Of a stretch of 64,000 bases of DNA, positions 2,200-58,194 are shown in pieces. Under the pieces are notes generated by a model. The model ran no database searches and was not told where the DNA came from. It worked only from the letters and a program-made list of their open reading frames with translations. A program made the position numbers and the translations under genes. The number at the start of each line of letters is the position of its first letter. The stretch's first letter is position 1. Location of the stretch: NCBI GenBank assembly GCA_036374815.1, contig DASUSZ010000130.1, positions 2,732 to 66,731 on the forward strand, in the 5' to 3' direction. The stretch comes from Vicinamibacterales bacterium (GTDB lineage: Bacteria > Acidobacteriota > Vicinamibacteria > Vicinamibacterales > UBA2999).

Positions 2200-3581
2200 G
2201 GAATCGGAATCTCCAGCGGCGTGCCGGGCCTGATCTGCGCGTTGCCGGTCCAGTGCAGGCGGCCGGCCGTCGGCCGGTAGCGGTCGTCGAGGCCGAACAG
2301 CGTATTCAGCCGCGTGAAGATCACCGGCGTCGTTGCCGGCCGGTCTTTCCGCGGGTAGGCGTGGACGCGAACGGCGGTGACGTTGTCGACGGTCGCGCCC
2401 ACGGGCAAGGGCACCGCGCCGCGGAAGCATCCATCACGCGCGATGCGGTATTCGGCGACGCCGCGATCGGCGGCAATCCATTTGTCGTTCACCTTGATCG
2501 AGAACGTCAGCGCGCGATTGCCGAGCGTGCCGCAGCCCTCGAGATACGCGTAGCGCCGCGGATCCGGAATCGTGCCCTTGCCGGGCGGCGGATCATCCGC
2601 GATCTTGGCCTCGCGCGTCAGCTCCTTCGATGCGACCGCATACGTCCAGGCGTTGGTGTCCATCACCATCTCGCGCGAGACGTCGGTGAGATTCACCAGC
2701 AGCGGCGCCGGCGCGTAACGAACGGTGGTGGTCCCGCGGTCGAGCACCATGTTGTTGTCGGTGCTGACCCATAGCAGCGGGTGCCGGCCTTCACGTTTGC
2801 CGGCAAACGGCAGGATCTCGTGTTCAGGGCCCTGCATGTCCTCGCTGACAATCGATCCGCCGGCGCCGAGCTCGACGCTGTAGACGTACTCGATGTCGGT
2901 GCTGCGGCCCCACGTCGCCATCAGCCGATCGACCGGCGTGCCGCCGTCTTCATTGGTGAAGATCACGGTGTAGCGGTAGCGCCTGCCCGCCGGCGCCTTT
3001 TCGACTTCGTACCACATCAGGATCGGCACGTCGGTGAACTTGCCGACGGTATTCGGACGCGCGTGGACGAACGGCGCCAGCGACAGCGCCTCGAAGCTGT
3101 CGGCGTCGGGTTCGATTTGATCGATCGATACCGTCCACTGCGCCGCGTTCGCGCCTGTGAGCGCCTTCGCCGTCAGCTCGGCATCCTCGGAGATGGCGAG
3201 CGAGTGCTTGCCGGCACCGACCAGTCCGAGCATCACGTCGTAATCGGCTTCGCCGCTCCTGACGATCGGCACATGGATCGGCGCGCGATCGTCGAGCGTG
3301 AGCTTGAGGACCACCGCCTCGGAGCCGGCCGTGTCCCACGCACACCGCTCGCACCGCACCTTCAGCCGCGCGATCGCCTCGACGTTTTCGGAGGAATCAA
3401 ACGCCGTGCGGAAAACGCCGTCGGCGATCGGCGCGGGCCGCGCCGGCCCGCAGCCAAGAAAGACGAGACCGGTGAGGACCAAAAACGCCGGGAGCTGGGA
3501 ACCGGGAACCGGGAACCGAGCGGCTCCCCGTTCCTGGCCGGCTCCCGGCTCCCGGCTCCCGGCTTGCGGCTTAGAAGCCAA
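2196..3581 (-). CDS. Hypothetical lipoprotein (about 460 aa), no family recognised
   Basis: Track ORF 2196..3581. A hydrophobic stretch ends in a lipobox-like LVFLGC. The only in-frame starts are TTG 3581 (overlaps the TBDR stop by 11 nt; the N-region then translates the heptamer repeat as AGSREPGAGQERG) and TTG 3482 (MVLTGLVFLGC). It sits between the TBDR and ABC genes in the same orientation. Confidence 0.6.
   Translation of the reverse strand: MASKPQAGSREPGAGQERGAARFPVPGSQLPAFLVLTGLVFLGCGPARPAPIADGVFRTAFDSSENVEAIARLKVRCERCAWDTAGSEAVVLKLTLDDRAPIHVPIVRSGEADYDVMLGLVGAGKHSLAISEDAELTAKALTGANAAQWTVSIDQIEPDADSFEALSLAPFVHARPNTVGKFTDVPILMWYEVEKAPAGRRYRYTVIFTNEDGGTPVDRLMATWGRSTDIEYVYSVELGAGGSIVSEDMQGPEHEILPFAGKREGRHPLLWVSTDNNMVLDRGTTTVRYAPAPLLVNLTDVSREMVMDTNAWTYAVASKELTREAKIADDPPPGKGTIPDPRRYAYLEGCGTLGNRALTFSIKVNDKWIAADRGVAEYRIARDGCFRGAVPLPVGATVDNVTAVRVHAYPRKDRPATTPVIFTRLNTLFGLDDRYRPTAGRLHWTGNAQIRPGTPLEIPIP
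3489..3563. repeat. Inverted heptamer arrays: GGGAGCT-(GGGAACC)x3, 22-nt spacer, (GGCTCCC)x3
   Basis: Read directly from the sequence: GGGAACC at 3497-3517 and GGCTCCC at 3540-3560. On the minus-sense RNA, GGGAGCC pairs with GGUUCCC with a G:U at the variable position. Confidence 0.9.
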
Positions 3582-6500
3582 AGCGCAACGACAGCTGCGC
3601 GACCCGCGGATCGCCCGCGAGACTGGAGATCACGCCGACATTGGCCGCCGAGATGTTGGAGACCGGCAGGCCGAAGTTGGCGCGATTGAACACGTTGAAC
3701 ACGTCGGCGCGCAGCGTGATGTTGGCGCGGCTGTTCAACGCAATCCTGCGCTGCACGCTCATGTCGAACGTCACCCAGCCGGGTCCGCGCAGGATGTTGC
3801 GGCCCGCGTTGCCGAACGTGCCCGAGGGCACCGGCGTGAACGCCGCCGGATTGAACCACTGCGCCACCGTCTTCGGACCGTCCGGATCGCCGGTGAGGTT
3901 CGGCACGCCGGTCTGATCGGCGCCGACGTTGTTGTTGCCCTGCGTGACCGTGAACGGCCGGCCCGATCGCGCGCTGTAGATGCCGCTCAACAGCCACCCG
4001 CCGAGAATCTTGCCGGCGATGCCGTCCGACAGCATCGCCTTGCCCTCACCGAACGGCAGCTCGACGACGAAGTTGCCGACGAAGCGGTGACGGATGTCGA
4101 AGTCGCTCGGGCCCTCCCACGATTCGAGATCGCGCGTGTTCTGCGCGCGTCCTGAAGACGCATTGAGGTGCTCCGGCGCCTGGTCGCGCGCCTCGCCGAT
4201 CGTGTACGACGCGCGGATGCTGTAGCCGTCGCTGAAGCGCTTCTCGAACGACAGGTCGACGCCCTTGTAGTTGGCTTCGCCGTTCATCTCGCGCGCCTGG
4301 ATGTTGCCGAAGTTCGGGTACGGCACCGGGCCGTTGGCGTCGAGCGTGCCGCGCAGCGGCTGGTTCAGGTTGCGCAGCACCGCGAGGTGCCTGGTGAACG
4401 AGCCGATCGCGTCGGCCGAGACCACGAAATTGCCGGCCAGCTCGCGCTCGATGCCGGCGCCGAACTGCTGCACCATCGTGCGCGGCGCGTCCTCGAACGC
4501 GGCACGCAGCTTCAGGTTGCGAATCACCAGGTTGTTCGGGTCGAGGTAGTTCGACGGGAACCCGTCGCGCATGAAGAACACCGGCGTGGTCGCGCCCGAC
4601 GAGGAATTGACCTGGATGTTGATCAGCCCCGGCGGGTTCAACGCGAGCTGATCCTCCGAACCGATGCGATCGAACTGGTTGAAGAACACGCCGTAGCCGC
4701 CGCGCAGCAGCGTCCTGTCGTTGATGCGGTAGATCGCGCCGATGCGCGGCGCGAAGTTGTTGGTATCGGGTTTCACCAGCGCGCGATCGGCGAGCGAGCC
4801 GTCGGACGCGAACACCAGCGAGCCGCCGCCGTCCGGATTGAAGTTCGCCATCCGGTTGTCCTGCTCGGTCGCCGGCGTCATGAAGTCGTAGCGCAGGCCG
4901 AGATTGAGCGTCAGCTTGTCGGTCGGCTTCCAGTCGTCCTGCACGAAGAACGAGCTCGACCACAGCTCCTGCGTGACCACGAACACGTTGGTGAGCTCGG
5001 CGCGGTTGGGATAACCCAGCAGGAAATCCGCGAACGCGTGGCCGGTGAACGTCGACTGGAAGCGCAGGTTGCCGCGCGTCGGCGCCACGTCGAAGTACTC
5101 GTTGGTCATCGGCATCATCAGGTCGATGCCGAACTTGATCTGGTGATTGCCGCGCATCCACGTGGTGGTGTTCAGCCACTGCACCTGGTTGGTGTGCTGG
5201 AACTTCGGCATGAAGTTCGGCGAGCCGAGACGGATGTGCCCGTCGATGTCGATGCCGACAATGCCGCCGGCCACGCGCGGATCTTCAGGCACGCCGCGGA
5301 AGCCGATCTGCGCCATGCCGCTCTCGCCGAACGGATCCTGCTGCCCGTCGTTGGTGCCGCGCGCCCACGACACGCGCGATTCGTTGACGAGATGCGAGCT
5401 GATCACCTTGTTCCAGCCGCCGACGACCGCATGCGAGTCGAGGAAGTTGCGGCCCCACGCCGACGTCGACGTGCCGTCGATGATGCCGCCGAACCACCCG
5501 GGCACGAATCGCACGCGGTTGCTGCCGATGTAGCGGACGAACAGATTGTTGGTGTTGCCCATCGGCACGTCGACGCGAACGAGGTAGCGATCCGATTCGT
5601 CCTCGACGTTCGGCTGGCGGATGAAGTTGTTGGCGCCCGTCGTGTTCGGCAGCGGCACCAGCTGCATGATCGCCGCGGCGACCGGATCGATGCGGTTCTG
5701 CGGAATCGTGTTGTTCGGGAACGGCTGGCCGGTCAGCGGATCGCGAATCGTCGACGTGAACACGCCGCTGCGCTGCGCCGCCGTCATCACGTTGCCGGTG
5801 CGAAGCACGCCCTGCTCGAGCCGCGTGCCTTCGTAGTCGGCAAAGAAGAACGCGCGGCTGCGCATCAGCGGGCCGCCGAGGTTGCCGCCAAACTGGTTCT
5901 GCTTGTTGGTGGCCTTGGGCTGGTTCGCGACCTTCGCGAAGTAATTGATCGTGTCGAGGCGATCGTCACGGTAGAAGTCGTAGACGGTGCCGCGGAACTG
6001 GTTGGTGCCGGACTTGGTGTTGACGATGATCGCCGCGCCTGGCGACCAGCCGTACTCGGCCGCGTACGGGCTCGTCACGACCTTGAACTCGTCGATCGCA
6101 TCGACCGACGGCCTCGATATCTGCGTCGTCAGCTCCTGCACGTTGGTCGAGAAGCTGTTGTTGGCGACGCCGTCGAGCAGGAAGTTGTTCTGCAGGCTGC
6201 GATTGCCGTGGACGCTGATGCCGCCGGTGCGCCCGGCCGACGTGCCGCCGGCCTGCTCGGTGTAGCGATCGCTCTGCACGCCGGGAACCATCGCCAGCAG
6301 ATCGTCCCAGTTCCGGATCGCCAGCGGCAGCTTGTCGACTTCGTTGGTGTCGACGACGGTGCCGAGCACGGCGGATTCGGTGCTGAGCAGCGGCGTGACG
6401 CCTTCGACCTTCACCGTCTCGCCGATCGATCCGACGGCGAGCGACAGATCAAGCCGTGACCTGGCGCCGAGCTCGAGGCTCACCACCTGTTCGTAACGCT

Positions 6501-7676: not shown

Positions 7677-7681
7677 CGCCG

Positions 7682-8581
7682 ATGATTCGTGTAGCCAACG
7701 CACCGTGCTCCTGGGGAGTCCTTGAATTTGGCGGCGACGCCAAGCCTGCAACCTTTGACACCGTCCTCGACGAGATCCGATCGACCGGATATGAGGGGAC
7801 CGAGCTGGGCGACTGGGGTTTCATGCCCACCGACCCCGCCGCGCTGAAACGCGAGCTGGCCAGCCGGCGCCTTGCGATGGTCGGCGCGTTCGTTCCGATC
7901 GGGCTGGCCGACGCACGGACGCATGGGTTCGGGCTGGAAACAGCGGTGCGGACGGCGGAGCTGATGCGCGATGCCGGCGCCGCGGAGGCGGTGATTGTGC
8001 TTGCCGACGACAACGCATCGGTGCCGGCGCGCGAGCAGAATGCCGGACGGATCGCGCCCGAGCACGAGCTGACCGATCGGCAATGGGACACCTTTGCCGC
8101 CGGCGCGGACCTCGTCGCCCGCGCGGTGGCGGAGCGCACCGGTTTGCGCACTGTTTTCCATCCGCACTGCGGCGGCTACGTTGAAACCCCGCGCGAGATC
8201 GATGCGCTGATGCAGCGCACGGATCCGAAACGGCTCGGCCTCGTCCTCGACACCGGCCACATCGTCTACGGCGGCGGCGACCCGTTGCGCGTGTTCCAGG
8301 CGCATCGCGATCGCGTATGGCACGTGCACTTCAAGGATTGCGACGCGAACGTCGCCGCGATGGCACGCCAGCAGAAGCTCGGCTACCTCGCCGCGGTCCG
8401 AAAGCAGTTGTTCTGCGAGCTCGGCGAAGGCATTGTCGACTTCGAGGCGGTCACTGCGGCGCTGCGTGAAGCGCGCTACAACGGATGGATCGTGGTCGAG
8501 CAGGATGTCTTCCCGGGGTACGGCTCCCCGAAGGAGAGCGCGGCAAAAAGCCGGAATTACCTACGCAGCCTCGGTGTTTGA
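7682..8581 (+). CDS. iolE: Inosose dehydratase-like sugar phosphate isomerase/epimerase (xylose-isomerase-like TIM barrel)
   Basis: Track ORF 7682..8581. The blocks FHPHCGGYVETPREIDALMQRTDPKRLGLVLDTGHI...VWHVHFKDCD...GWIVVEQD parallel B. subtilis IolE as I remember it. The context is iolB/iolD. Confidence 0.8.
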   Translation: MIRVANAPCSWGVLEFGGDAKPATFDTVLDEIRSTGYEGTELGDWGFMPTDPAALKRELASRRLAMVGAFVPIGLADARTHGFGLETAVRTAELMRDAGAAEAVIVLADDNASVPAREQNAGRIAPEHELTDRQWDTFAAGADLVARAVAERTGLRTVFHPHCGGYVETPREIDALMQRTDPKRLGLVLDTGHIVYGGGDPLRVFQAHRDRVWHVHFKDCDANVAAMARQQKLGYLAAVRKQLFCELGEGIVDFEAVTAALREARYNGWIVVEQDVFPGYGSPKESAAKSRNYLRSLGV

Positions 8582-8592
8582 CCGCCGGGCCG

Positions 8593-8616
8593 TGAGCCCG
8601 CAAGCCCGTGAGCCCG
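8593..8616. repeat. Octamer tandem repeat TGAGCCCG CAAGCCCG TGAGCCCG
   Basis: Read directly. It lies in the 45-nt spacer between the iolE stop (8581) and the transaldolase-family start (8627). The unit family (YRRGCCCS) is the same as at 38923 and 58162. Confidence 0.85.
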
Positions 8617-8626
8617 AATCACGCTT

Positions 8627-9730
8627 ATGATTTCGCCCATGTCGACCGGCACCGCGAAGCGGAACCCGCTGCAGGAGATGACGCGGACCACGCCGACGTG
8701 CCTGTGGAACGACTCGGCGGACCCGGACGAGCTGCGATGGAGCCTCGACCAGGGCGGCGTCGGCGCCACGTGCAATCCGGTCATCGCGCACACCGTTCTG
8801 AAGACTCGCATCGCGGAATGGCGGCCGCGTATTGCCGCGTTGATCCGCGAGCGGCCGTCGGCGACCGAGGATGAGATCGCGTGGGCGGCTGTCGAAGCGC
8901 TGTCGATTGATGCGGCGGCGTTGCTGATGCCCGCGTTCGAAGCGAGCCGCGGCCGCAACGGCCGCCTGTCCATTCAAACCGACCCGCGGTTCTACCGCGA
9001 CGCGCCGGCGCTCGTCGAGCAGGCGGTGCGGTTCGCTTCGCTCGCCCCGAACATGATCGTGAAGATTCCCGCGACGCGCGCCGGCATCGAGGCAATCGAG
9101 GAGGCGACCGCACACGGCATCAGCATCAATGCCACCGTGTCGTTCAGCGTGCCGCAGACCATCGCGGTGGCCGAAGCGGTCGAGCGCGGCTTGAAGCGCC
9201 GCGAAGCACGCGGCCACGATGTCGAGCGCATGGGTCCGGTCTGCACGATCATGGTCGGCCGGCTCGACGACTGGTTGAAGGTGGTAATGGAGAAATCGGG
9301 CATCACGACCGATCCCGGTCACCTCGAATGGGCGGGCGTGGCGGTGTTCAAGAAGGCCTATGCGATCTACCGCGAGCGCGGCTACCGCCTGCGGTTGCTT
9401 TCCGCCGCGTTCCGCAATCACATGCACTGGAGCGAGCTGATCGGCGGTGATGTGGTGATTTCACCGCCGTGCCCGTGGCAAAAGAGATTTGCGGCGAGCG
9501 ATATCGAGATCGCGCCGCGCATCGAGACGCCCGTCGATCGCGCGATGGTCGACGACCTGTATCGCCGATTCGAGGACTTCAGGCGCGCCTACGATGCGGA
9601 CGGGATGCGCGTCGACGAGTTCGACGGCTTCGCGCCGACGCGCCGCACGCTGCGGCAGTTTCTTGCCGCCTGCGATGATCTCGCCTCGCTGGTGCGCGAC
9701 ATCATGATTGCCAATCCCGACACGCCATGA
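8627..9730 (+). CDS. Transaldolase-family protein
   Basis: Track ORF 8627..9730. It contains TCLWNDSADPDEL, GATCNPVI and the Schiff-base lysine block MIVKIPATRAGIEAI typical of transaldolase/FSA-type aldolases. Its stop forms an ATGA overlap with the iolD start. Confidence 0.8.
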   Translation: MISPMSTGTAKRNPLQEMTRTTPTCLWNDSADPDELRWSLDQGGVGATCNPVIAHTVLKTRIAEWRPRIAALIRERPSATEDEIAWAAVEALSIDAAALLMPAFEASRGRNGRLSIQTDPRFYRDAPALVEQAVRFASLAPNMIVKIPATRAGIEAIEEATAHGISINATVSFSVPQTIAVAEAVERGLKRREARGHDVERMGPVCTIMVGRLDDWLKVVMEKSGITTDPGHLEWAGVAVFKKAYAIYRERGYRLRLLSAAFRNHMHWSELIGGDVVISPPCPWQKRFAASDIEIAPRIETPVDRAMVDDLYRRFEDFRRAYDADGMRVDEFDGFAPTRRTLRQFLAACDDLASLVRDIMIANPDTP

Positions 9731-11544
9731 TTCGCCTCACTACCGCACAGGCGCTGGTGCGATTCCTCGGCGTCCAGTCCAGCGAGCGCGATCGGCAGCA
9801 ACAGCCGCTCTTCGGCGGCGTGTTTGGCATCTTCGGCCACGGCAACGTGGCAGGCATCGGCCAGGCGCTCGATGAGATGGGCGGCCCGCTTCGTTATTAC
9901 CAATGCCGCAACGAGCAGGCGATGGTCCATACCGCCGCGGCGTTTGCGAAGATGTCGAACCGGTTGCGCACGCTCGTGTGCACCACGTCGATCGGTCCCG
10001 GCGCGACCAACATGCTGACCGGCGCCGCCGGAGCGACGATCAATCGGCTGCCTGTGTTGCTGCTCCCCGGAGACGTGTTCGCGAATCGCGTCCCCGCGCC
10101 GGTGCTGCAGCAGCTCGAGTCGGCACAGACGCAGGACCTGTCCGTCAATGACTGCTTCCGCCCGGTGTCGCGATACTGGGATCGCATCTATCGCGCCGAG
10201 CAGCTGCTGACCGCGCTTCCTGAAGCGATGCGCGTGCTGACCTCTCCGGCCGAGACGGGCGCGGTGACGCTCGCGCTCCCGCAGGACACGCAGACCGAAG
10301 CGTTTGACTTTCCGGAGTCGTTCTTCGAGCCGCGGGTGTGGGCGATTCCGCGGCAGCGCGGCGATGCGGCCTCGATCGCGCGCGCGGTGGAGCTGATTCG
10401 CGGCAGCAAGGCGCCGCTCGTCATCGCCGGCGGCGGCGTGCTCTACAGCGACGCGTCGCAGGCGTTGCGAAGGTTTGCGGACGCCACCGGCATCGCTGTC
10501 GCCGAAACGCAGGCGGGCAAGAGCGCGATCGCGTGGGATCATCCGCTCGCGCTCGGCGGCATCGGCGTCACCGGCACGCTGGCCGCGAACCGCATCGCCC
10601 GCCAGGCCGACGTCGTGATCGCGATTGGCACGCGCCTCGCCGATTTCACGACCATGTCGAACAGCCTGTTCGGCGAGGGCACGAAGTTCATCGGCATCAA
10701 CGTCTGCGAGATGGATGCGTTCAAGCGCGACGCGGTGCCGGTGATCGCGGACGCGCGCGCCGCCATCGAGGAGATCGGCGGCGCACTCGCGGGCTGGCGC
10801 ACGACCGATGCGTATCGAAACAATGTCGGGCGGCTCGCCGGCGAATGGCACGCCGAGGTCGATCGCCTCTACGGTCAGCGGAGCGCGGCGCCGTTCGCGC
10901 AGGCGGAAGTGATCGGCGCGGTAAACGCGAGCGCAGCACCGCGCGATGTCGTGGTTTGTGCCGCCGGCAGCATGCCGGGCGATCTCCACAAGTTATGGCG
11001 CGCGTCCGAGCCGAATACCTACCACCTCGAGTACGGCTACTCGTGCATGGGCTACGAGATCGCGGGAGGCCTGGGCGTGAAGATGGCCGATCCATCCCGC
11101 GAGGTGTTGGTGATGGTCGGCGACGGTTCGTACCTCATGATGGCGCAGGAAATCGTCACCTCGATCCAGGAAGGCCGCAAGCTGATCATCGTTCTCGTCG
11201 ACAGCAGCGGCTACGCGAGCATCGGCGGACTGTCGAGGTCTATCGGCTCCGGCGGTTTCGGCACGCAGTTCGATTACAAGGTGCCGATCGATCTTGCCGC
11301 CAACGCCGAGTCGCTTGGCGCGCTCGTGTATCGCGCAACCGATCGCGCCTCGCTCGACGAGGGACTGCGCGCCGCTCGCGCAGCGGATCGCACCGCGGTG
11401 ATCTACGCGCGCGTCGATCCGATGAAAGGTGTCCCCGGCTGCGAGTCGTGGTGGGACGTGCCGGTCGCGGAAGTGTCGTCGCAGCCAACGGTCCAGGCCG
11501 CGCGCGCCGCGTGGGAGGAAGGGCGCCGCCGCCGCGGCCGCTGA
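9727..11544 (+). CDS. iolD: 3D-(3,5/4)-trihydroxycyclohexane-1,2-dione acylhydrolase (ThDP enzyme)
   Basis: Track ORF 9727..11544. The N-terminus [14 protein letters not shown]...[18 protein letters not shown] matches the IolD N-terminus as remembered. A ThDP-binding block is present ([17 protein letters not shown]). Confidence 0.9.
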
Positions 11545-11576
11545 ATCGCCGCGGATCGTACTGCTATCCTCAGATT

Positions 11577-13763
<2,187 letters not shown>

Positions 13764-13768
13764 CCTCG

Positions 13769-15314: not shown

Positions 15315-15409
<95 letters not shown>

Positions 15410-23998: not shown

Positions 23999-26098
23999 TC
24001 AAAAGTAGAAGCTCGCGACGATCAGGAGCCACACGAGATCGACGAAGAGCCAGTACTTCCGCGTCGCATCGATGCGCGCCAGCCACCGCTCTCGATCGTC
24101 GGCCGCCATGCTGAACCCAGGTCCGGCCAGCCAGCCCGTGAACACGGCGCCGCCGAGAACGTGCGCGGCGTGCACGCCGGTCAGCGTAAACCAGCACGCC
24201 CACATCAAGTTGGTCGACGGCAGGATGCCGTTGCCGAGCAGCGCGGCATCGTTCAACACTTTCATGATCACGAACGTCAGGCCGAGCGTGTTGCTGACGA
24301 CCAGCTGGCTGCGCTTCGCGCCGAACGCCGCGCTCGCGCCGACCAGTAATACTGTCTCGAGCCACGGAAACCCGCCGACCGGCCCCGGCCAGCTCGCCGC
24401 CCCGGCGCGCAGCATGACGTAGCCCGAAAACAGCGACGCAAACAGCATCACCTCCGACGCAATAAACAGCCAGATACCGAGCTTCGCGCGCCGGGATCCG
24501 GGATCCGGGAGATGGGAACCGGAATTCGCTTCCGGTTCGCGCTTCCCGGTTCCCGCTTCCCGGTTCCCGGTTCCCGGCTCCCGTCGTGTTCGCGCGAGCA
24601 ACAGATTCACGACGAATGGAATCTGAAATAGACCGAGCGCGAACGCGGCATATGTCATGTGGGTCTGCCATTGCAGCGTCGGCTGCGCGTGCGCGTAACT
24701 GGCGCCCGCGTCCCACAAGCGGCGATTCACGCCCATCAGGCCGATCGCGAACATCGGCATGAAGATCAGATTCATGCACACGAACGATCCCCAGAAGTGA
24801 ATCTTGCCGAGCATCTCGTCGAGCGATCGGCCGGTGATCGTCGGGAACCAGTAATAGATGCCGGCGAACAGCGCGAACACCGTGCCCGGTGCGACGAGAT
24901 AGTGAAAGTGGCCGACGACGTAATAGGTGTCGTGCAGCGTGACGTCACTCGCGGCCAGGCCAAGCGGCAGGCCGGTCAGCCCGCCGATGCCGAACATCGG
25001 CAGGAAGGCGAGCGCGAACAGCATCGGCGTGTTGAACGTGATCGAGCCGCCCCACAGCGTCAGCACCAAAGACGAAATCAAAATCACCGACGGTATCGAA
25101 ATGATGAACGTCGTCACCTGGAAGAACCCGGTCAGCGTGGTGCCCATGCCCGTCAGGAACATGTGATGCGCCCAGACGACCATCGACATGCCGCCCATGA
25201 ACAGCACGGCCGACACCATCAGGCCGTAGCCCCATAACGGCCGCCGCGCATTCGCGGTGATCACTTCCGACACGATGCCCATCGCCGGCAGGATCAGCAC
25301 GTAGACCTCTGGATGTCCGAGGAACCAGAACAGGTGCTGCCAGAGCAGCGGATTGCCGCCACCCGCCACGCCTTGCAACGGCACCCCGCCAACCATCAGC
25401 CCACTCGGCAAGAAAAAGCTCGTGCCCGCGACGCGATCCATCAACTGGAAGATCGCGGCTGCCTGCAACGCGGGAAACGCGAGCAACAACAGCAGTGCCG
25501 TGATCAGCTGCGACCAGACGAAGAACGGCATCTTCGCGAGCGTGATGCCGGCCGCGCGGCCGTGCGCAATGGTCACGATGACGTTGATCGCATTCAGCGC
25601 CGACGATACGCCGATCAGGAAAATGCCAATCAGCCAGAAATTCTGTCCGGTTGTTTCGATCACGGCGAGCGGCGCGTACGAGGTCCACCCCGATCGCGCG
25701 GCGCCGCCTTCGACGAAAAAGCTCGCGACCATGATCAGGCCGGCCGCGAGGTACAGCCAGTAGCTCAGCGCGTTGAGACGCGGGAACGCCATCTCCGGCG
25801 CGCCGATTTGCAGTGGGACGAAATAGTTGGCGAACGCCCCGGCGGCCAGCGGCACCACGGCGAGGAACACCATCACGCTGCCGTGCATCGCCACGAGCTG
25901 GTTGTAGAACTCCGGCAGCATGATGCCGCCCGGTGCGTTGGATTCGCCGACAAAGAAGGTGATCCACGCGGGCATCGGCTGGCCGGGCCAGGCCAGTTGC
26001 CATCGCATCAGGATCATCAGCAGGAAGCCGACCAGCAGGAAGAAGAGGGCCGTGATGCCGTACTGCAGGCCCACGGTCTTGTGGTCGGTCCACCGCAC
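23999..26098 (-). CDS. ctaD: Cytochrome c oxidase subunit I fused to subunit III (A-type heme-copper oxidase)
   Basis: This is the 3' 700 codons of track ORF 23999..27046. Subunit I blocks: WFLGHPEVYVLILP, VWAHHMFLTGMG, HDTYYVVGHFHYLV. After a repeat-encoded linker comes a subunit III-like part (LGIWLFIASEVMLFASLFSGY...FTLTGVHAAHVLGG...YWLFVDLVWLLIV). The start is GTG 26098 (MRWTDHKTVGLQYG). Sequence further upstream overlaps the divergent M61 gene. No in-frame stop or start separates the two parts. Confidence 0.85.
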   Translation of the reverse strand: MRWTDHKTVGLQYGITALFFLLVGFLLMILMRWQLAWPGQPMPAWITFFVGESNAPGGIMLPEFYNQLVAMHGSVMVFLAVVPLAAGAFANYFVPLQIGAPEMAFPRLNALSYWLYLAAGLIMVASFFVEGGAARSGWTSYAPLAVIETTGQNFWLIGIFLIGVSSALNAINVIVTIAHGRAAGITLAKMPFFVWSQLITALLLLLAFPALQAAAIFQLMDRVAGTSFFLPSGLMVGGVPLQGVAGGGNPLLWQHLFWFLGHPEVYVLILPAMGIVSEVITANARRPLWGYGLMVSAVLFMGGMSMVVWAHHMFLTGMGTTLTGFFQVTTFIISIPSVILISSLVLTLWGGSITFNTPMLFALAFLPMFGIGGLTGLPLGLAASDVTLHDTYYVVGHFHYLVAPGTVFALFAGIYYWFPTITGRSLDEMLGKIHFWGSFVCMNLIFMPMFAIGLMGVNRRLWDAGASYAHAQPTLQWQTHMTYAAFALGLFQIPFVVNLLLARTRREPGTGNREAGTGKREPEANSGSHLPDPGSRRAKLGIWLFIASEVMLFASLFSGYVMLRAGAASWPGPVGGFPWLETVLLVGASAAFGAKRSQLVVSNTLGLTFVIMKVLNDAALLGNGILPSTNLMWACWFTLTGVHAAHVLGGAVFTGWLAGPGFSMAADDRERWLARIDATRKYWLFVDLVWLLIVASFYF
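24490..24583. repeat. Heptamer (GGGAWCC/GGGARSC) arrays in inverted arrangement around a 9-bp perfect hairpin core, inside the ctaD I-III linker
   Basis: The plus strand reads CCGGGATCCGGGATCCGGGAGATGGGAACCGGAATTCGCTTCCGGTTCGCGCTTCCCGGTTCCCGCTTCCCGGTTCCCGGTTCCCGGCTCCCG. The core is GAACCGGAA-TTCGC-TTCCGGTTC (24516-24538). It is translated as REPGTGNREAGTGKREPEANSGSHLPDPGS. Confidence 0.9.
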
Positions 26099-26118
26099 GC
26101 GTTGATTGTAGGCGCTAT

Positions 26119-26146
26119 CGCTTTCGGCTTCCGGCTCTCGGCTTAA
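26119..26146. repeat. Degenerate heptamer run CGCTTTC GGCTTCC GGCTCTC GGCTTAA
   Basis: Read directly. It has period 7 and lies in the 60-bp divergent spacer between the ctaD start (26098) and the M61 start (26159). It is related to the GGCTCCC unit at 3540-3560. Confidence 0.6.
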
Positions 26147-26158
26147 AATACCGGCATC

Positions 26159-27961: not shown

Positions 27962-28009
27962 CCGGCTGCCCAACCTTTCGCGGGGCGCTTCCGTCTATTG
28001 GAAGTGCTT

Positions 28010-36395: not shown

Positions 36396-38108
36396 ATGCA
36401 TCCCATCGACTGGGCGATTCTCGTCGGGGTGATGGCGTGGATCGTCTACGACGGTCTCAAGCGCACCAAGGGCCGCGACGAGCTCGAAGGCTACTTCCTC
36501 GCCAATCGCAGCATCCCGTGGTGGGCGGCGGGCCTGTCGGTGATGGCGACGCAGCTGTCCGCGATCACCATGATCGGCACGACCGGCCAGGGCTATTCGT
36601 CCGGCATGAGCTTCGTGCAGTTTTATTTCGGCCTGCCGCTGGCGATGGTGGTGCTGTCGCTGACACTGGTGCCGTTCTTCTATCGCGCACGCGTCTACAC
36701 CGCCTACGAGTACCTCGAGCGCCGCTTCGACGCGAAGACGCGATCGCTGACCAGTTTTCTGTTCCTGCTGCAGCGCGGCCTGTCGTGCGGCGTCATCATC
36801 TCGGCGCCGGCCGTGGTGATGTCGATCATCCTTGGCCTCGACGTCACCACGACGGCGTTCGTGATCGGTGTGCCGGCGATCGTCTACACGGTGTTCGGCG
36901 GCGTGCAGGCGGTGACGTGGACCGACGTCAAGATCATGGTGCTGATCGTCGGCGGCCTGCTGGCGACGGCGGTGCTGCTGGTCGTCGGCCTCCCCGACAC
37001 CGTGGGCTTTGGCGATGCGCTGCACCTGGCCGCGATCACGGGCCGGCTCGACACGCTCAACTTCACGTTCGATTTGAACCAGACCTACACCGTCTGGTCG
37101 GGACTGATCGGCGGCCTGTTCCTGATGCTGGGGTATTTCGGCGCGGACCAGAGCCAGGTGCAGCGTTACCTGACCGCGCAGTCGCTGCACGCGGCGAAGC
37201 ATTCGCTGCTGATGAGCGCGTACTGGAAGATCCCGCTGCAGGTGCTGGTGCTGCTGGTCGGCATCCTCGTCTACACGTTCTACATCTTCACGCCGGCGCC
37301 GATGCTCTTCAACAGGGTGCACGAAGAGCGCGTCGCGCGCAGCGAGCGCGCCGGCGAGTTCTCGCAGCTGCAGCAGCGGTTCGATGCGACGGTGGCAGCC
37401 CGCCGCGCCGCGGCACAGCAGGTGGTGACCGCCGACACTCCGGAGAGCCAGGCGGCGTACCTGAAACTGGATGCGGACTTGCAGGCGGTGCGCAGCGAGG
37501 CCGCCACGCTCGTCAAGGAAACGTCCGGCGATCGCAACTACAACGACGCGAATTACGTGTTTCCGACGTTCATCGCCACGCAGCTGCCGATCGGGCTGAT
37601 CGGCTTGATGATGGTCGCGATCATCCTCGCGGCCACGGACTCGATCGCCGCGGAGCTCAATTCGCTGTCGACCGCCACGGTGATCGATTTCTACAAGCGC
37701 TACGTGAAGACCGAAGCATCCGACGGACACTACCTGATGGTGTCGAAGTGGGCGACGGCCTTCTGGGGCCTGTTCGCAAGCATCGTCGCGATCTGGGCCA
37801 GCGAGCTGGGCTCGCTGATCGAGGTCGTCAACCGCTTCGGCTCGTATTTCTACGGCTCGATTCTCGGCGTTTTCATCCTGGCGATCGGCTGGCGCCGCGC
37901 CAACGGCACCGGCGCGTTCATCGGCGTGCTCGGCGGGCTTGGCCTGGTGATGTACGCGGCCTCGACGGGCATCTCCTTCTTGTGGCTGAACCTCGTCGGC
38001 GCGGTCGGCGTGTTCGTGATCGGGATGATCGTCAGCGAGATCACGCGAGCGGGGAGCGGGGAGCCGGGAACCGGGAGGCGGGAGCCGGGAACCGGGAGCC
38101 GGGCATGA
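36396..38108 (+). CDS. Sodium:solute symporter (SSF) family transporter
   Basis: Track ORF 36366..38108, trimmed to ATG 36396 (MHPIDWAILVGVMAW). It has about 13-14 TM helices and the SSF block YFGADQSQVQRYLTA. The C-terminal tail GSGEPGTGRREPGTGSRA is encoded by the heptamer repeat. Confidence 0.9.
   Translation: MHPIDWAILVGVMAWIVYDGLKRTKGRDELEGYFLANRSIPWWAAGLSVMATQLSAITMIGTTGQGYSSGMSFVQFYFGLPLAMVVLSLTLVPFFYRARVYTAYEYLERRFDAKTRSLTSFLFLLQRGLSCGVIISAPAVVMSIILGLDVTTTAFVIGVPAIVYTVFGGVQAVTWTDVKIMVLIVGGLLATAVLLVVGLPDTVGFGDALHLAAITGRLDTLNFTFDLNQTYTVWSGLIGGLFLMLGYFGADQSQVQRYLTAQSLHAAKHSLLMSAYWKIPLQVLVLLVGILVYTFYIFTPAPMLFNRVHEERVARSERAGEFSQLQQRFDATVAARRAAAQQVVTADTPESQAAYLKLDADLQAVRSEAATLVKETSGDRNYNDANYVFPTFIATQLPIGLIGLMMVAIILAATDSIAAELNSLSTATVIDFYKRYVKTEASDGHYLMVSKWATAFWGLFASIVAIWASELGSLIEVVNRFGSYFYGSILGVFILAIGWRRANGTGAFIGVLGGLGLVMYAASTGISFLWLNLVGAVGVFVIGMIVSEITRAGSGEPGTGRREPGTGSRA
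38052..38103 (+). repeat. Seven tandem heptads GGGAGCG GGGAGCC GGGAACC GGGAGGC GGGAGCC GGGAACC GGGAGCC (+GGG)
   Basis: Read directly. It is a direct (not inverted) array on the sense strand and ends 2 nt before the ATGA junction at 38105-38108. Confidence 0.9.
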
Positions 38109-38203
38109 ATCGCCCGTTGCTGATCGCGCTCTTCGCGGTGATCGCCGTGATGGTTGCGTCGTGGACGCTTGGCGAATTTTTGCGGCAGCGTAAAGATAAG
38201 TAG
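38105..38203 (+). CDS. 32-aa single-TM mini-protein downstream of the symporter
   Basis: Sequence MNRPLLIALFAVIAVMVASWTLGEFLRQRKDK. Its ATG forms an ATGA overlap with the symporter stop. It is visible as the last 32 residues of the alternative-frame track ORF 36437..38203. Confidence 0.45.
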   Translation: MNRPLLIALFAVIAVMVASWTLGEFLRQRKDK

Positions 38204-38673: not shown

Positions 38674-38925
38674 ATGGCACGACTACTCCCAGCGACCGAT
38701 CGGCCCAGACAGGCTCCCCGAAGCCGTTTCTGGCCACGTGTTTTCAAGACCGTCAGCGTGACGTCGATCACCCTCGCGCCGGTCGCGGCGATGTCGTTGT
38801 GGCTGTTGATGAGCGATGCCGTGCTCGCGGAAGAAGTGATGGAGCGCGGCGATCTCCTGCCGGTGGTCAAAGCTCTCGCGAAGGTGATCGGCAAGGCCGT
38901 CATGGCCGCGATGTCCGCTCTTTAA
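38674..38925 (+). CDS. Hypothetical small protein (start uncertain)
   Basis: Track ORF 38611..38925. Only the 3' two thirds has the high GC3 of local genes (from about ...KTVSVTSITLAPVAAMSLWLLMSD). It has one hydrophobic helix and no recognised motif. Its stop TAA is the first unit of the (TAAGCCCC)6 repeat. Confidence 0.3.
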   Translation: MARLLPATDRPRQAPRSRFWPRVFKTVSVTSITLAPVAAMSLWLLMSDAVLAEEVMERGDLLPVVKALAKVIGKAVMAAMSAL

Positions 38926-38972
38926 GCCCCTAAGCCCCTAAGCCCCTAAGCCCCTAAGCCCCTAAGCCCCTA
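38923..38972. repeat. (TAAGCCCC)x6 perfect tandem octamer plus partial TAG
   Basis: Read directly: six perfect units at 38923-38970. The first TAA is the stop of the plus-strand ORF. The final CTA (38970-38972) is the TAG stop of the minus-strand DUF5916-like gene. Confidence 0.95.
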
Positions 38973-53571: not shown

Positions 53572-53634
53572 TATCTCATCCCTCCGGGTTGGCGCAGTTG
53601 CAAGCAAAATGCCACGAAGGGATAGAATGACGGT

Positions 53635-54126: not shown

Positions 54127-54141
54127 GCGCCAAGCCAAGCG

Positions 54142-54165
54142 GCTGGCCGCAGCGGCCAGCTTTTT
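54142..54165 (+). terminator. Rho-independent terminator
   Basis: GCTGGCC-GCAGC-GGCCAGC followed by TTTTT (54161-54165), 16 nt after the stop at 54126. Confidence 0.65.
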
Positions 54166-54188
54166 AACTTTCTATTTTCAGTTTTTAA

Positions 54189-54224
54189 CTGCCGCGGGCC
54201 GACGCCCGTGGCGGGAGCTTTTTT
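54189..54224 (+). promoter_or_regulatory. Second hairpin plus U6 immediately upstream of the TBDR start; partly sequesters the GGGAG Shine-Dalgarno
   Basis: CTGCCGCGGGC-CGAC-GCCCGTGGCGG (about 11 bp including G:U pairs), then GAGC TTTTTT ATG. The GGGAG at 54213-54217 overlaps the 3' base of the stem. The 9-mer TTTTTAACT occurs twice (54161-54169 and 54182-54190). Confidence 0.4.
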
Positions 54225-56867
54225 ATGCGTACGTTTCGTCTTTGTGTCTTTCTGTCTGCGATAGCGCTTGCCGCTTCGGCGTCCGCGGCCACCATCAGCG
54301 GCGTCATTACCGACAGCAGCGGCGCGGCGTTGCCGTCGACGCGCGTCGTTCTCAAGTCACTCGCCAGCGGCGAGGAAACGATTGTTGAAACCGATGCGTC
54401 CGGCCGTTACACCTTCGACGTGGCGGGCACGGGTTCGTATCTCGTGATTGTCAGCCGCCCCGGATTCTCCGAGGCCGCCCGCACCGTCGTGATCGATTCG
54501 GCGGAGCGCACCTTCGATCTGCCGCTGTCGCTCGAGCTCGGCGTGTTGAGCGACCAGGTGACGGTCACCTCGAGCCGCGGCGATCGCGAGGTCCGGCAGA
54601 TTCCGCTGCACGTCGAGACGCTGTCGCGCGCCGGCATCGAGCAGAGCAACGTGCTCTCGACCGGCGATGCGCTGGCCAGCGCCGTCAACGTCACACCCGT
54701 CGGCAACGGGCCGTTCGGCGTCCGTCCGCGGCTGCGCGGTCTCGATTCGACGCGCATGCTCGTACTGGTCGACGGCGAGCGGCTCAACACCGCGCGGCAG
54801 GCGACCGATCGCACCGGCGCGGAAGTCGGCTTGATCGCACCCGACACCATCAGCCGCGTCGAGATCATCAACGGCGCAGGAACGCTGATGTACGGATCCG
54901 ACGCCCTCGCCGGTACGGTCAACATCATCACCAACGAGACGGCGTTCTCGCCGACGCGGCAGCTCCAGTACGGCTTCAACGGCTTCTACAGCTCCAACGA
55001 GAACGGCATGCGCGGCACCGTGACGCTCGGCGGGTCGTCGCCGCGGGCCACGTTCCGGATCCAGGCCGGCGCCGAGAAGTACGATAACTACCAGGCCGGA
55101 TCGTTCGACCTCGAAGACACGCGTCCACTCTACGCGGATGGCACGCTGCGCCAGGCCGACACGATCGACACGAACTTCGGCTTCAACTTCCGCGCCTTCC
55201 CCGACCCGTTCAACCAGCCGTTCGTGCGCACCGATGCGGAGATCTTGAACTCGCAGGCCGAGGGCAAGTTCGTCAACGCCTCGGGCCTCTTCAAGCTCGG
55301 TGATCGCCGCACGCTGCGTCTCCGCTACCAGAGCCGCCGGATGGAGAACATCGGCTTCCCCGACTTCGAGCAGCCCTACTTCTTCAACGACACGTCGCTG
55401 CCGCACAGCAATCTCGACAAGTTCTCGGCGCGCTATGAAGCGCGGTCGCTCACCCCGTGGCTCGCCAACCTCTCGCTCACCGCGTATTACCAGCGCACCG
55501 AACGCCTGCTGCGCACGACGCTGCCGATCCAGTTCCCGGCCCCGACCGCGGGAGCCTTCTTCCCGATCTCGGTGTTCCGTCTCGACATCCTGTCCGACAC
55601 CGAGCAGCGGGTCTGGACACCTGGCGTCGATCTCAATGCCGTGTTCGTGCCGGCCAAGGATCACTTGCTGACGACCGGCGTCACCTTCTATCGCGATCGC
55701 AGCAGCGATCAGCGGACGACGACGACGCAGATGTCGCTGCTGGGACAGGTGGCGCTCGGCGCCCGCGGCCCGGCGCCCGTGGTGTTCCCTTCGCCGGTCG
55801 CCATCGGGCCGCCGGCGATCGCACACCCGGTCCGCGTGCCGGACGCGAGCCTTCGCGATGTTGCGGTGTTCGCGCAGGACGAGTGGCGCGTCAGGCCGTC
55901 GCTGTCGGTCGTCGCCGGCCTGCGCGGCGACTTCTATACGGTGGTCACCGAAGCCACGCCGGGCTATGACGTGCAGGCGGTGATCGGCAACGCCACGCCG
56001 GCGATCGATCAGAGCAAGCTCCCCGATCCGAACGGCGCCACCTATTCGCGCAACGCCCTCACCGGCGACATCGGCATCGTCTCGAATCCGGATGGCGCCA
56101 TCAACCCGTTCGTCCGATTTGGCCGCAGCTACCGCCATCCGAACCTGGAGGAAATGCTGTTCGCGGGCACGGCGACGAGCGGCAGCCTCCTGCCGAACGT
56201 CACGGTCGAGCCCGAAACCGGCAACAACTTCGATGCGGGCGTGAAGTTCCGCGCCGGCTCGTTCAGCGGCGGCGCTTACTACTTCCTGAACCAGTATCAG
56301 AACTTCATCGCGCAGGATCTCGTGGTCGCCAGCAACGCTGCCGGTCCGCTCGCCCAGGCGCGCAACTTCGGCAACGTGCGCGTCACCGGCGTCGAGCTGT
56401 CCGGCGCGATGCCGATCACGCTGCGTCCCGGAGTGCTGACGCTGACCGGCTCGGCGGCGCTGACGCGCGGCACGATTCGCGAGGGCACCAACCCCCTCGA
56501 CAACAGCTCGCTCGCCGACACGCCGTTCGACAACATCACGCCGTCGAAGGTGATCGCCAACGCCCGCTTCACGCAGTCGCGCGGCCGCTGGTGGGTTGAG
56601 TACGGCGTGCGCGCGCAGGGCGAAGTCAGGCGCGTCGCCGCCACGCTGCTCGACTCGCCGTTCCTGATCGCGCAGGACCTGCTCTCGCTCGACGGCTTCG
56701 CCGTGCATCGCGCCGGCGCCGGCATCAACCTGTCGAGCGGCCGGAACCGCGCGGCGTTGACCTTCGCCGTCGAGAACCTTGCCGATCTCTACTACCGTGA
56801 GCACTTCCAGTTCGCGCCGTCGCGCGGCCGGAGCTTCACGATCGGGCTCAACGTCGGAGCGTTTTAG
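54225..56867 (+). CDS. TonB-dependent receptor with N-terminal carboxypeptidase-regulatory-like domain
   Basis: Track ORF 54225..56867. It has a signal peptide (LCVFLSAIALAASASAA), a CarboxypepD_reg-like block (ISGVITDSSGAALPSTRVVLKS...GSYLVIVSRPGF), a plug (GLDSTRMLVLVDGERLN) and the C-terminal FTIGLNVGAF. Confidence 0.9.
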   Translation: MRTFRLCVFLSAIALAASASAATISGVITDSSGAALPSTRVVLKSLASGEETIVETDASGRYTFDVAGTGSYLVIVSRPGFSEAARTVVIDSAERTFDLPLSLELGVLSDQVTVTSSRGDREVRQIPLHVETLSRAGIEQSNVLSTGDALASAVNVTPVGNGPFGVRPRLRGLDSTRMLVLVDGERLNTARQATDRTGAEVGLIAPDTISRVEIINGAGTLMYGSDALAGTVNIITNETAFSPTRQLQYGFNGFYSSNENGMRGTVTLGGSSPRATFRIQAGAEKYDNYQAGSFDLEDTRPLYADGTLRQADTIDTNFGFNFRAFPDPFNQPFVRTDAEILNSQAEGKFVNASGLFKLGDRRTLRLRYQSRRMENIGFPDFEQPYFFNDTSLPHSNLDKFSARYEARSLTPWLANLSLTAYYQRTERLLRTTLPIQFPAPTAGAFFPISVFRLDILSDTEQRVWTPGVDLNAVFVPAKDHLLTTGVTFYRDRSSDQRTTTTQMSLLGQVALGARGPAPVVFPSPVAIGPPAIAHPVRVPDASLRDVAVFAQDEWRVRPSLSVVAGLRGDFYTVVTEATPGYDVQAVIGNATPAIDQSKLPDPNGATYSRNALTGDIGIVSNPDGAINPFVRFGRSYRHPNLEEMLFAGTATSGSLLPNVTVEPETGNNFDAGVKFRAGSFSGGAYYFLNQYQNFIAQDLVVASNAAGPLAQARNFGNVRVTGVELSGAMPITLRPGVLTLTGSAALTRGTIREGTNPLDNSSLADTPFDNITPSKVIANARFTQSRGRWWVEYGVRAQGEVRRVAATLLDSPFLIAQDLLSLDGFAVHRAGAGINLSSGRNRAALTFAVENLADLYYREHFQFAPSRGRSFTIGLNVGAF

Positions 56868-56869
56868 CC

Positions 56870-58088: not shown

Positions 58089-58105
58089 AGCGCATCCTCC
58101 GGGTA

Positions 58106-58125
58106 TTCTAAATACACATTTAGAA
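58106..58125. promoter_or_regulatory. Perfect palindrome TTCTAAAT-ACAC-ATTTAGAA, candidate TetR operator
   Basis: Read directly. It is AT-rich and lies in the divergent spacer between the DHFR-family gene and tetR, immediately downstream of the candidate minus-strand promoter. Confidence 0.55.
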
Positions 58126-58129
58126 ACAG

Positions 58130-58158
58130 ATACTAAACTGGCATTTATTAACTGTCAA
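58130..58158 (-). promoter_or_regulatory. Sigma70-like promoter reading toward the DHFR-family gene
   Basis: On the minus strand: TTGACA (58158..58153), a 17-nt spacer, then TAGTAT (58135..58130). The predicted +1 falls inside the palindrome at 58106-58125. Confidence 0.55.
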
Positions 58159-58161
58159 CTT

Positions 58162-58194
58162 CCGTAAGCCCGTAGGCCCGTAAGCCCGTAGCCC
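58162..58194. repeat. Octamer tandem repeat CCG TAAGCCCG TAGGCCCG TAAGCCCG TAGCCC abutting the tetR ATG
   Basis: Read directly. The array ends at the base before ATG 58195. No purine-rich Shine-Dalgarno is present. Confidence 0.9.

Follow-up and report, generated by a model that had tools for sequence, protein, structure and literature searches.

What does it mean that, in a genome packed with genes, short tandem repeats with units of seven or eight nucleotides stand again and again where one gene ends and the next begins? The question is raised by a 64-kb window (the whole stretch of DNA analyzed here; 65% GC) from a metagenome-assembled genome (MAG) of Vicinamibacterales, a soil acidobacterium, in which an earlier note had singled out seven loci of tandem heptads or octads and had described them as a genome-specific class of structure-forming, slippage-prone punctuation elements. 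The explanation that we hold to be moderately probable is that these arrays are slippage-prone simple-sequence repeats with long units, namely heptamers together with an octamer variant, and that they survive only at junctions between functional signals. Heptamers and octamer variant share the core R-A-G-C-C.

That the arrays themselves are real can be stated with some precision. Arrays were detected with Tandem Repeats Finder (TRF) and compared with 100 dinucleotide-preserving shuffles of the window, and TRF reports an array at each of the seven loci, weakly so at 8593 and 26119. Period-7 arrays lie at 3488-3518 and 3538-3564, at 24491-24510 and 24527-24583, at 38047-38103 (8.1 copies) and at 26120-26144 (77% matches, score 36), while period-8 arrays lie at 38923-38972 (6.2 perfect copies of TAAGCCCC), at 58162-58194 (4.2 copies) and at 8595-8616 (2.8 copies, score 30). 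Seven period-7 arrays were observed in the window versus 0.98 expected, with a shuffle maximum of four, in agreement with the earlier view that this is not chance low complexity. For period 8, four were observed versus 0.88 expected, and because shuffles reach five such arrays, the octad count alone is not significant. The excess of heptads is clearly non-random, and so are the two strong octad arrays (38923-38972 and 58162-58194). Individually, the arrays at 8595 and 26120 are at chance level and the other five loci are far beyond it; since clear arrays are present in relatives at the position orthologous to 26120, the window array there is a real, degenerate member. Two of the loci, 3489-3563 and 24490-24583, are inverted arrangements in which G-rich heptads are followed by their complement, a feature missed by the earlier note, and they constitute the longest inverted repeats of the window. 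In an Rfam 15 covariance-model scan of the window no array locus was matched, the sole match being a tRNA at 15315-15406, which ARAGORN names tRNA-Ser (15315-15409).

The significance of the number seven becomes apparent when the window is considered alongside 79 related loci (L001-L079), which together with it make up a clade set of 1.43 Mb. Within this set, TRF arrays of periods 5, 6, 7, 8, 9 and 10 number 1, 12, 107, 46, 51 and 9, respectively, and perfect runs of at least three copies number 6, 10, 53, 16, 2 and 1. Loci at middle distance keep the heptad excess (12 arrays versus 0, 2 and 2 for periods 6, 8 and 9), and control loci from distant homologues (31-37% identity, 371 kb, 60% GC) have no such excess (4 arrays versus 3, 5 and 5 for the same periods). 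A scan for unit patterns covering 1.98 Mb in total, that is ~1.9 Mb besides the window, located three or more exact copies of GGGARCC at four places in the window, likewise in the window's own Logan contig, and otherwise only in L002, twice; three or more copies of YRRGCCCS were found only in the window and once in L026. The units of other genomes include GGGAGTC, AGGGATC, AAGGCAG, TAGCGGC, GAAAGTA, CACGAAG and GCCATCAG, and sites that are orthologous between sister genomes hold GAAAGTA, CACGAAG, GCCATCAG or TAGCGGC units. The unit is lineage-specific and the phenomenon is clade-wide. The term genome-specific class does not suit the phenomenon, given that heptad arrays dominate across the Vicinamibacterales-like clade.

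Placement of the arrays is equally characteristic. Across the clade set heptad arrays are 83% intergenic, though ~87% of the DNA is coding, and 8 of the 18 "coding" arrays lie within 25 nt of the C-terminus. Many abut stop codons or -10 boxes, in keeping with the earlier assertion that the repeats mark gene and domain boundaries. In co-directional intergenic regions, half of the heptad arrays (25 of 50) start between -4 and +9 nt from the upstream stop codon. With regard to the downstream side, hexamers of the form TANNNT (typically TATGAT, TAGAAT or TACAAT) peak sharply with starts at -12 to -15 from start codons, being found there in 146 of the 712 genes of the clade loci that have an upstream spacer of at least 25 nt. 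This peak is the signature of leaderless transcription, and it suggests that a fifth or more of such genes are leaderless and served by -10-only promoters; a Shine-Dalgarno-like peak is also present, at -13 to -9. More than half of the arrays situated no more than 80 nt upstream of a start codon (38 of 70) stand before a gene whose -10 box has the leaderless spacing, and 30 of these 38 end between -7 and +9 nt from the hexamer. Given stop-side and -10-side placement together, an array as a rule takes up all the room from one functional signal to the next. Within the window, a codon log-odds gene caller, used in place of an earlier GC3-based caller that merged neighboring open reading frames (ORFs), gives ~95% coding sequence and common 4-nt overlaps among neighboring genes. 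The earlier note had put every locus 0-40 nt from a start codon or a stop codon, which holds for six of the seven; the remaining one, 24490-24583, lies at a junction of COX1 and COX3 domains that is a gene boundary in more distant relatives. Because 57% of the intergenic bases of the window are within 40 nt of a gene end, however, such nearness largely follows from being non-coding.

Comparison of orthologous sites reveals how readily the arrays come, go and change. The clearest case is the octad array at 38923-38972, composed of six perfect units (GGGGCTTA when read on the minus strand and TAAGCCCC on the plus) and assigned to the minus strand, which spans exactly the distance from the stop codon of a plus-strand gene (38923-38925) to that of a convergent minus-strand gene (38970-38972). 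The same two stops overlap in L001, the closest relative (TTCTAAAGAGCGG), from which the window differs by exactly TA(GGGGCTTA)x6, a clean 48-bp difference. Elsewhere this site holds a CACGGAAR octad hairpin (L008 and L082) or TGATCCC heptads (L005), and L080 and L057 have no array. A direct heptad array on the plus strand (38047-38103; 8.1 units of GGGAGCC/GGGAACC) encodes the C-terminal tail of a sodium:solute symporter; the stop of the symporter gene (38106-38108) shares bases with the ATG, at 38105, of a conserved ORF of 32 aa, or 33 codons if its own stop is counted. Here the window has eight GGGARCC units versus four in L002, other units occur in L008 (GAAGGCA), L062 (AGGGATC, with an assembly gap) and L053 (GGCGACA), and most relatives have none. 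At both of these sites, the two tested in this respect, arrays are absent from L001.

A third site illustrates the diversity that one position can accommodate. Across species, at least 15 types of tandem unit abut the stop codon of orthologues of the DUF5916 gene, with unit lengths of 7, 8, 16 or 22 nt and often followed by an inverted copy, and the window and its closest relatives have no spacer at all after this stop. Among these are tandem repeats of ~22 nt (TTGTCGGGAGGGCACTYC...) in L005, L011, L012, L013 and L046, followed in L046 by the inverted copy; the 22-mer includes the heptad GTCGGGA. A fourth site, the 5' region of cox1, retains a more orderly record. The degenerate heptads at 26120-26144 (AAGCCGA GAGCCGG AAGCCGA on the minus strand) occupy the 33 nt between two back-to-back -10-like boxes, TACAAT on the minus strand (26105-26110, 6 nt before the cox1 GTG at 26098) and TAAAAT on the plus strand (26144-26149, 9 nt before an ATG at 26159). 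AGCCGAR units are found here in the window, L007, L062 and L024, AAGCCCC units in the next clade, and TAGCCGC or AGTGCTG units in others, so that unit families track phylogeny, the pattern expected for vertical descent with homogenization. Copy number also differs between species at orthologous sites (6.4 versus 4.4, 7.3 versus 5.3 and 4.3 versus 4.0 copies in L018 and L070), in line with the slippage-prone, non-identical copy number that the earlier note had anticipated.

Two further window arrays have period 8. The weak octad array on the plus strand at 8593-8616 (~3 units, GTGAGCCC GCAAGCCC GTGAGCCC) is set between a stop codon (8579-8581) and a -10-like box, TATGAT, at 8626-8631 (+), 7 nt before the ATG at 8639, a position that agrees with the clade-wide TANNNT peak. 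The plus-strand array at 58162-58194 (4.2 units of CCGTAAGC/CCGTAGGC) abuts the ATG (58195) of a TetR-family gene; its C-rich strand is the sense strand, and neither a Shine-Dalgarno sequence nor a -10 box is present between array and ATG. It is true, as claimed, that the C-rich strand is the plus strand in all three octads, though three is a small number.

Three heptad loci had been said to be read through as protein, and comparison with orthologues bears this out for a lipoprotein signal peptide, a COX1-COX3 linker and the symporter tail, in each of which the array is in frame. The first of these is a heptad hairpin on the minus strand at 3484-3568, the sense strand of which carries (GAGCCGG)x3.9 at 3538-3564 and then (GGTTCCC)x~4 at 3488-3518. 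It begins 7 nt past the stop codon (3571-3573) of a TonB-dependent receptor gene and is located in frame within the signal-peptide n-region of the downstream lipoprotein, the start codon of which is a TTG at 3581. Orthologues of the lipoprotein have a MASR or MASK start, a hydrophobic stretch and a lipobox, with the start codon overlapping the receptor stop; the window correspondingly has TTG-GCT-TCT-AAG (M-A-S-K) at 3581, the hairpin in frame and then LVLTGLVFLGC. The lipoprotein ORF thus delimited runs over 2196-3581 (-), while the NCBI protein VFZ31_06015 (428 aa, 100% identical to the product of 2199-3482) starts at 3482, as did the prediction of the codon log-odds caller, and its annotated start is probably 33 codons too late. 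The same junction is array-free in L163 (MVSRTLVLAVLLLAGGC), has a single-arm array of four units in L162 and has a GGAATCR/GGTTCCC hairpin in L160; in all three array-bearing lipoprotein starts (window, L160 and L162) the array is in frame. RNA folding gives -68.7 kcal/mol (z -5.9) for the minus (sense) strand and -63.3 kcal/mol for the plus strand, and UUUUU lies directly 3' of the hairpin. This U run encodes Ala-Phe-Leu and is absent from L160 and L162. A simple terminator scan did not flag the hairpin, and its interpretation as an intrinsic terminator was downgraded because the orthologues show it to be translated in frame inside the signal peptide.

The second translated array, a heptad hairpin at 24485-24583 on the minus strand, is the longest inverted repeat in the window (sense RNA fold -73.6 kcal/mol, z -6.6). 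It lies in the 120-nt in-frame linker between the COX1 and COX3 parts of a single ORF (23999-26098), where it encodes REPGTGNREAGTGKREPEANSGSHLPDPGSRR. Distant relatives encode COX1 and COX3 separately, in genes that overlap by 4 nt (GTGA or ATGA), and COX1 there ends in a conserved tail, NPW..TLEW...PPP.GNF...Y.Y. In near relatives the two are fused via hypervariable, repeat-rich linkers, all 14 of which have lengths divisible by three. The fusion appears to have arisen in the present sub-clade. Longer palindromes, GGGGTC(T/A)GACCCC or TTGGGGTCAGG...CCTGACCCCAA, are seen in the cox linkers of relatives (L029, L046, L062 and L079) and in intergenic DNA (L056 12484-12600), and look like a separate family of the clade resembling repetitive extragenic palindromic (REP) sequences or miniature inverted-repeat transposable elements.

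A mechanism that would account for these observations can be proposed. A mutational process of the clade, to which both the period spectrum and the between-species differences in copy number point, may favor duplication or slippage in steps of 7-8 nt and so make, expand and contract arrays. Once made, an array would persist only if it lies exactly in the seam between two functional signals or, alternatively, in frame at a spot in a sequence-tolerant protein segment (the n-region of a signal peptide, a linker between domains or a C-terminal tail, for example). Arrays would be confined to seams because the genome is ~95% coding and its signals are contiguous, with stop codons overlapping starts, other stops or -10 boxes, and survival restricted to seams and to in-frame positions would give arrays the look of punctuation. 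Each lineage would in addition homogenize and re-use its preferred unit, the route of one unit to unrelated sites being left unexplained by this mechanism. Inverted pairs, about a quarter of the arrays, are predicted to fold into long stem-loops in the sense transcript and, as a side effect, may reduce read-through or translational coupling; the mechanism assumes no dedicated function, and the quadruplex potential discussed below would belong to some units and not to the class.

Several findings weigh against this explanation. One genome re-uses one unit at unrelated sites, as in the four GGGARCC loci within 64 kb, and the unit is shared in 22% of within-genome array pairs versus 11% between genomes; such re-use counts against pure slippage because pure slippage predicts random units. 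Stop-adjacent arrays are G-rich (G>C) on the sense strand in 35 cases versus 14, and 13 of the 16 hairpin-type elements fold better as sense RNA (mean -2.5 kcal/mol, p ~0.05), the sense strand being the more stable because G-U pairs become A-C mismatches on the other strand. This strand bias and folding advantage hint at selection or at a process linked to transcription. The stop-side preference is itself weak, in that after collapse to 28 independent intergenic orthologous sites the arrays are nearer the stop at 17 and nearer the start at 7 (p = 0.06). Moreover, the only independent assembly of the same sample, a 1.6-kb Logan contig (L161), is identical to the window; in a metagenome scan for strain-level relatives, the best match had 80% amino-acid identity. 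Unit re-use at unrelated sites, the G-rich-sense bias and the mild sense folding advantage remain unexplained and leave room for rivals that invoke function or dispersal.

Among these rivals, the suggestion that the arrays are RNA stem-loop elements of a REP- or terminator-like kind, which would stop or attenuate transcription, shield the following gene's promoter (a gene that is often leaderless) or protect the upstream mRNA at its 3' end, is in our estimation rather unlikely. It draws on the inverted partner that 36 of 153 arrays have within 250 nt, on the exceptional folding of 3484-3568 and 24485-24583, on the greater stability of the sense strand in hairpin-type elements, on the UUUUU following the former hairpin and on the many arrays that have a stop codon on one side and the following gene's -10 box on the other. 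Yet 117 of the 153 arrays, or three quarters, have no such partner, intergenic regions that contain arrays show no more structure than the rest (-0.392 versus -0.395 kcal/mol per nt), and sense and antisense strands do not fold significantly differently when all 3' intergenic regions are taken together (p = 0.13). Furthermore, both window hairpins are inside ORFs that require translation through them, and the U run after the first is coding sequence that L160 and L162 do not conserve. The genome also possesses ordinary terminators: two canonical ones, each a GC hairpin followed by a T run, are located at 54139-54166 (GGCTGGCCGCAGCGGCCAGC then TTTTT) and 54195-54225 (GCCGCGGGCCGACGCCCGTGGCGGGAGC then TTTTTT), upstream of a TonB-receptor gene at 54225, so that canonical intrinsic termination in this genome does not depend on the repeats. 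The idea of the earlier note, that the arrays are G-quadruplex (G4) or i-motif punctuation regulating transcription or translation at gene ends, seems to us very unlikely. All seven matches to the usual quadruplex pattern in the window, versus 0.96 expected from shuffles, do fall within the five array loci for which that note had claimed them, sense strands tend to be G-rich after stop codons, and G4 as well as i-motif structures have been obtained in vitro from the analogous GGGAATC and GGGGA(C/T)T repeats (Rehm et al., 2015; PMC4692102). When quadruplexes are allowed for in ViennaRNA folding, however, only the (GGGGCUUA)6 transcript of 38923-38972 prefers G4 (-49.0 versus -28.2 kcal/mol); canonical pairing is kept at all heptad loci and wins at four of the five pattern-bearing loci, two of which are halves of very stable hairpins (-69 and -74 kcal/mol). 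Nor are evenly spaced runs of G3-4 a common feature, as had been supposed, for the pattern fits 45 of 153 clade arrays (29%), a G3 or C3 run is present in the unit of 77 of 153, and orthologous sites hold units without G runs. Even in the systems in which quadruplexes were formed in vitro a regulatory role was not demonstrable (Rehm et al., 2015; PMC4692102). Quadruplex potential is accordingly best read as incidental, a predicted trait of some units and not of the class.

A further proposal is that the arrays are contingency switches, in which a change of one 7- or 8-nt unit would shift the reading frame or the promoter geometry and so turn a surface lipoprotein, transporter tails and leaderless promoters on or off. 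Unit lengths that are not multiples of three and arrays directly upstream of -10 boxes are compatible with phase variation, as is the array in the signal-peptide region of a lipoprotein whose gene shares an operon with that of a TonB-dependent receptor, an arrangement that resembles the CTCTT repeats in the leader peptides of Neisseria opa genes. But the reading frame is kept in each of the three lipoprotein alleles with an array and in every one of the 14 fused cox linkers, with no OFF allele seen among them, and the linked genes include core respiration (cox) and metabolism; phase variation was judged unlikely on the same ground for comparable heptamers (Rehm et al., 2015; PMC4692102), and we regard it as highly improbable here. 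Of equally slight probability is dispersal of the arrays by copy-and-paste, or their selection by a lineage-specific trans-acting factor, whether a protein or an RNA that recognizes the unit. Such a process would explain why one unit is present at four unrelated window sites and almost nowhere else in 1.9 Mb, and it would fit both an octad unit that is not derived from the local, ancestral-like L001 sequence and the abutment of arrays on TA-containing signals (stop codons and -10 boxes). Neither conserved flanks nor terminal inverted repeats nor a transposase was found, however; unit families follow phylogeny at orthologous sites, as in vertical descent with homogenization, and the state of L001 is also exactly what complete contraction of an array would leave. 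TA-targeted insertion is inseparable from seam context with these data. A further reading, which we hold to be unlikely, sees the arrays as not passive and would have a lineage-specific process (targeted insertion or recombination, or a co-evolving nucleic-acid-binding factor) seed a preferred 7-8-nt unit at seams between a stop and the next signal, where arrays would tune read-through, translational coupling or leaderless -10-only promoters and copy number would act as an evolvable dial. For the present, slippage combined with survival at seams is preferred, and punctuation in the sense of a function is not supported.

Remaining structural observations concern individual arrays. The fold of the direct array at 38047-38103 is unremarkable (z -1.2), and that of the direct array at 38923-38972 is likewise no better than shuffles. 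Two other roles for the arrays, one resembling that of a Shine-Dalgarno sequence and the other as binding sites (GGA) for CsrA, were considered and dropped, as many units have no such motif.

The earlier note did not recognize the repeats as a described family, and in this it was mistaken, since the class has already been reported. Rehm et al. (2015; PLoS One, PMC4692102) described two sets of G-rich heptamers, GGGAATC in Xanthomonas and GGGGA(C/T)T in Nostoc, that form G4 and i-motif structures in vitro and for which no function was identified. The Xanthomonas repeats are 89-93% intergenic and nearest the upstream ORF, 70 of 186 repeats in X. campestris pv. campestris are in convergent inverted pairs, the modal copy number is four and length varies between species (Rehm et al., 2015; PMC4692102). 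The likeness to the present arrays is extensive and includes tandem 7-nt units with a G3-4 tract at many dispersed loci, a non-coding bias (89-93% there, 83% here), frequent convergent inverted pairs (70 of 186 repeats versus 36 of 153 arrays in the present set), a modal copy number of four, variation in length and sequence between related species at the same intergenic sites and the lack of a tie to one functional class of genes. In both, arrays nearest the upstream ORF, no more than 50 bp from its stop, have the G-rich strand as the coding strand, and those upstream of an ORF have it as the non-coding strand, an arrangement that 58162-58194 matches. Differences are the phylum (Acidobacteriota, Vicinamibacterales), the unit (GGGARCC and not GGGNATC), the octamer variant (RAGCCCGY / TAAGCCCC), the half of clade arrays without a G run, the in-frame translation of several arrays, the tie to the -10 boxes of leaderless genes and a quadruplex potential that is here predicted from sequence and model. 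As relatives of the window carry AGGGATC, GGGAGTC and GGGAATC-like (L160) units along with many unrelated ones, and the unit of the window, GGGA(A/G)CC, differs from GGGNATC, the window belongs to this kind of repeat and not to that sequence family. What it adds to a class known from Xanthomonas and Nostoc is a further phylum, a further unit and a related octamer variant, not a new kind of element; no literature report of such heptamer repeats in Acidobacteria was found. Over-representation of heptamers in bacteria, together with a hypothesis of polymerase slippage, had been put forward previously (Mrazek, 2007, as cited by Rehm et al., PMC4692102).

Other short repeats provide additional points of reference. 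Direct repeats of the heptamer TAACTGA are found just upstream of start codons in Beggiatoaceae, Cyanobacteria and Bacteroidetes, within a few nt of the start and in regions without a canonical ribosome-binding site, and a binding protein has been proposed for them, not shown (MacGregor, 2015; PMC4679880). Cyanobacterial STRR heptanucleotide repeats of Calothrix and Nostoc are a further example (cited as ref. 39 in Rehm et al., PMC4692102). Both share with the present arrays an intergenic position, tandem heptamers and lineage-specific units, and the octads abutting the ATG at 58195 are placed as TAACTGA repeats are; their units, however, are AT-richer, and TAACTGA lies mainly upstream of starts whereas the arrays considered here lie mainly just past stops. 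REP sequences and bacterial interspersed mosaic elements of enterobacteria and pseudomonads are likewise short, species-specific, intergenic and usually 3' of genes, with inverted pairs that often form mRNA stem-loops, but the REP unit is an imperfect palindrome of 20-40 nt spread by a RAYT transposase, whereas here the units are direct tandem repeats of 7-8 nt and hairpins form only where two arrays face each other. No RAYT-like or other transposase was present among the 20 proteins from these 64 kb of the genome that were scanned against Pfam. As for contingency repeats, the CTCTT repeats of Neisseria opa and the 7-bp promoter repeats of Haemophilus hmw resemble the present arrays in having units that are not multiples of three and in lying in a signal-peptide region or just upstream of a promoter or start. 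Those repeats belong to host-adapted pathogens, affect surface antigens and have documented ON and OFF alleles; the arrays described here have only in-frame alleles, and their targets include cox and transporter genes.

The work thus extends the heptamer-repeat phenomenon to soil Acidobacteriota and contributes comparative data of a kind missing from earlier studies: one and the same seam holds different units in different species, a clean gain by insertion is possible where two stop codons overlap, survival within proteins occurs only in frame and many arrays fill the space from a stop codon to the -10 box of a leaderless gene. What has been called punctuation would then mostly be what selection leaves of a mutational process biased toward 7 nt, with quadruplex potential not its unifying feature. 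On the practical side, the arrays break short-read assemblies and mislead the annotation of start codons, as with VFZ31_06015. Runs of N are seen inside repeat arrays in public MAG assemblies, namely in the symporter tail of L062 and 3' of the DUF5916 gene in L029, and because arrays break or scaffold short-read assemblies, copy numbers taken from MAGs need caution. The clade at the same time offers many natural replicates with which to ask why 7 nt, and why one unit per lineage.

Several observations on the neighborhood accompany these results. The 32-aa ORF behind the symporter (38105-38203, +) encodes a membrane peptide, MNRPLLIALFAVIAVMVASWTLGEFLRQRKDK, and is kept 3' of the symporter in nearly all relatives, usually overlapping or abutting its stop codon; its product is probably a small symporter subunit. 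The symporter of L001 (L001 8329-9993 versus 36396-38108 in the window) is only ~57-63% identical to that of the window, while the flanking DUF5916 genes and the 32-aa and 104-aa ORFs are 73-91% identical, a divergence that possibly reflects gene replacement or fast evolution. For the DUF5916 protein (27998-30568), the best relatives, from MAGs of Vicinamibacterales and other Acidobacteriota, have 91% and ~78% identity. Contigs that are syntenic with the window and have 67-91% protein identity, among them L001, L002, L019, L023, L024 and L057, bear discordant record labels (Cyanobacteriota, Acidimicrobiia, Bifidobacteriaceae and Eubacteriales), and the MAG taxonomy of these contigs is probably wrong. 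Lastly, L078 carries (CCCCAGT)x5.4 at 11205-11246, two nt past a stop codon, a heptamer that we take to be the same as the cyanobacterial STRR1 unit, the likeness being presumably a coincidence.

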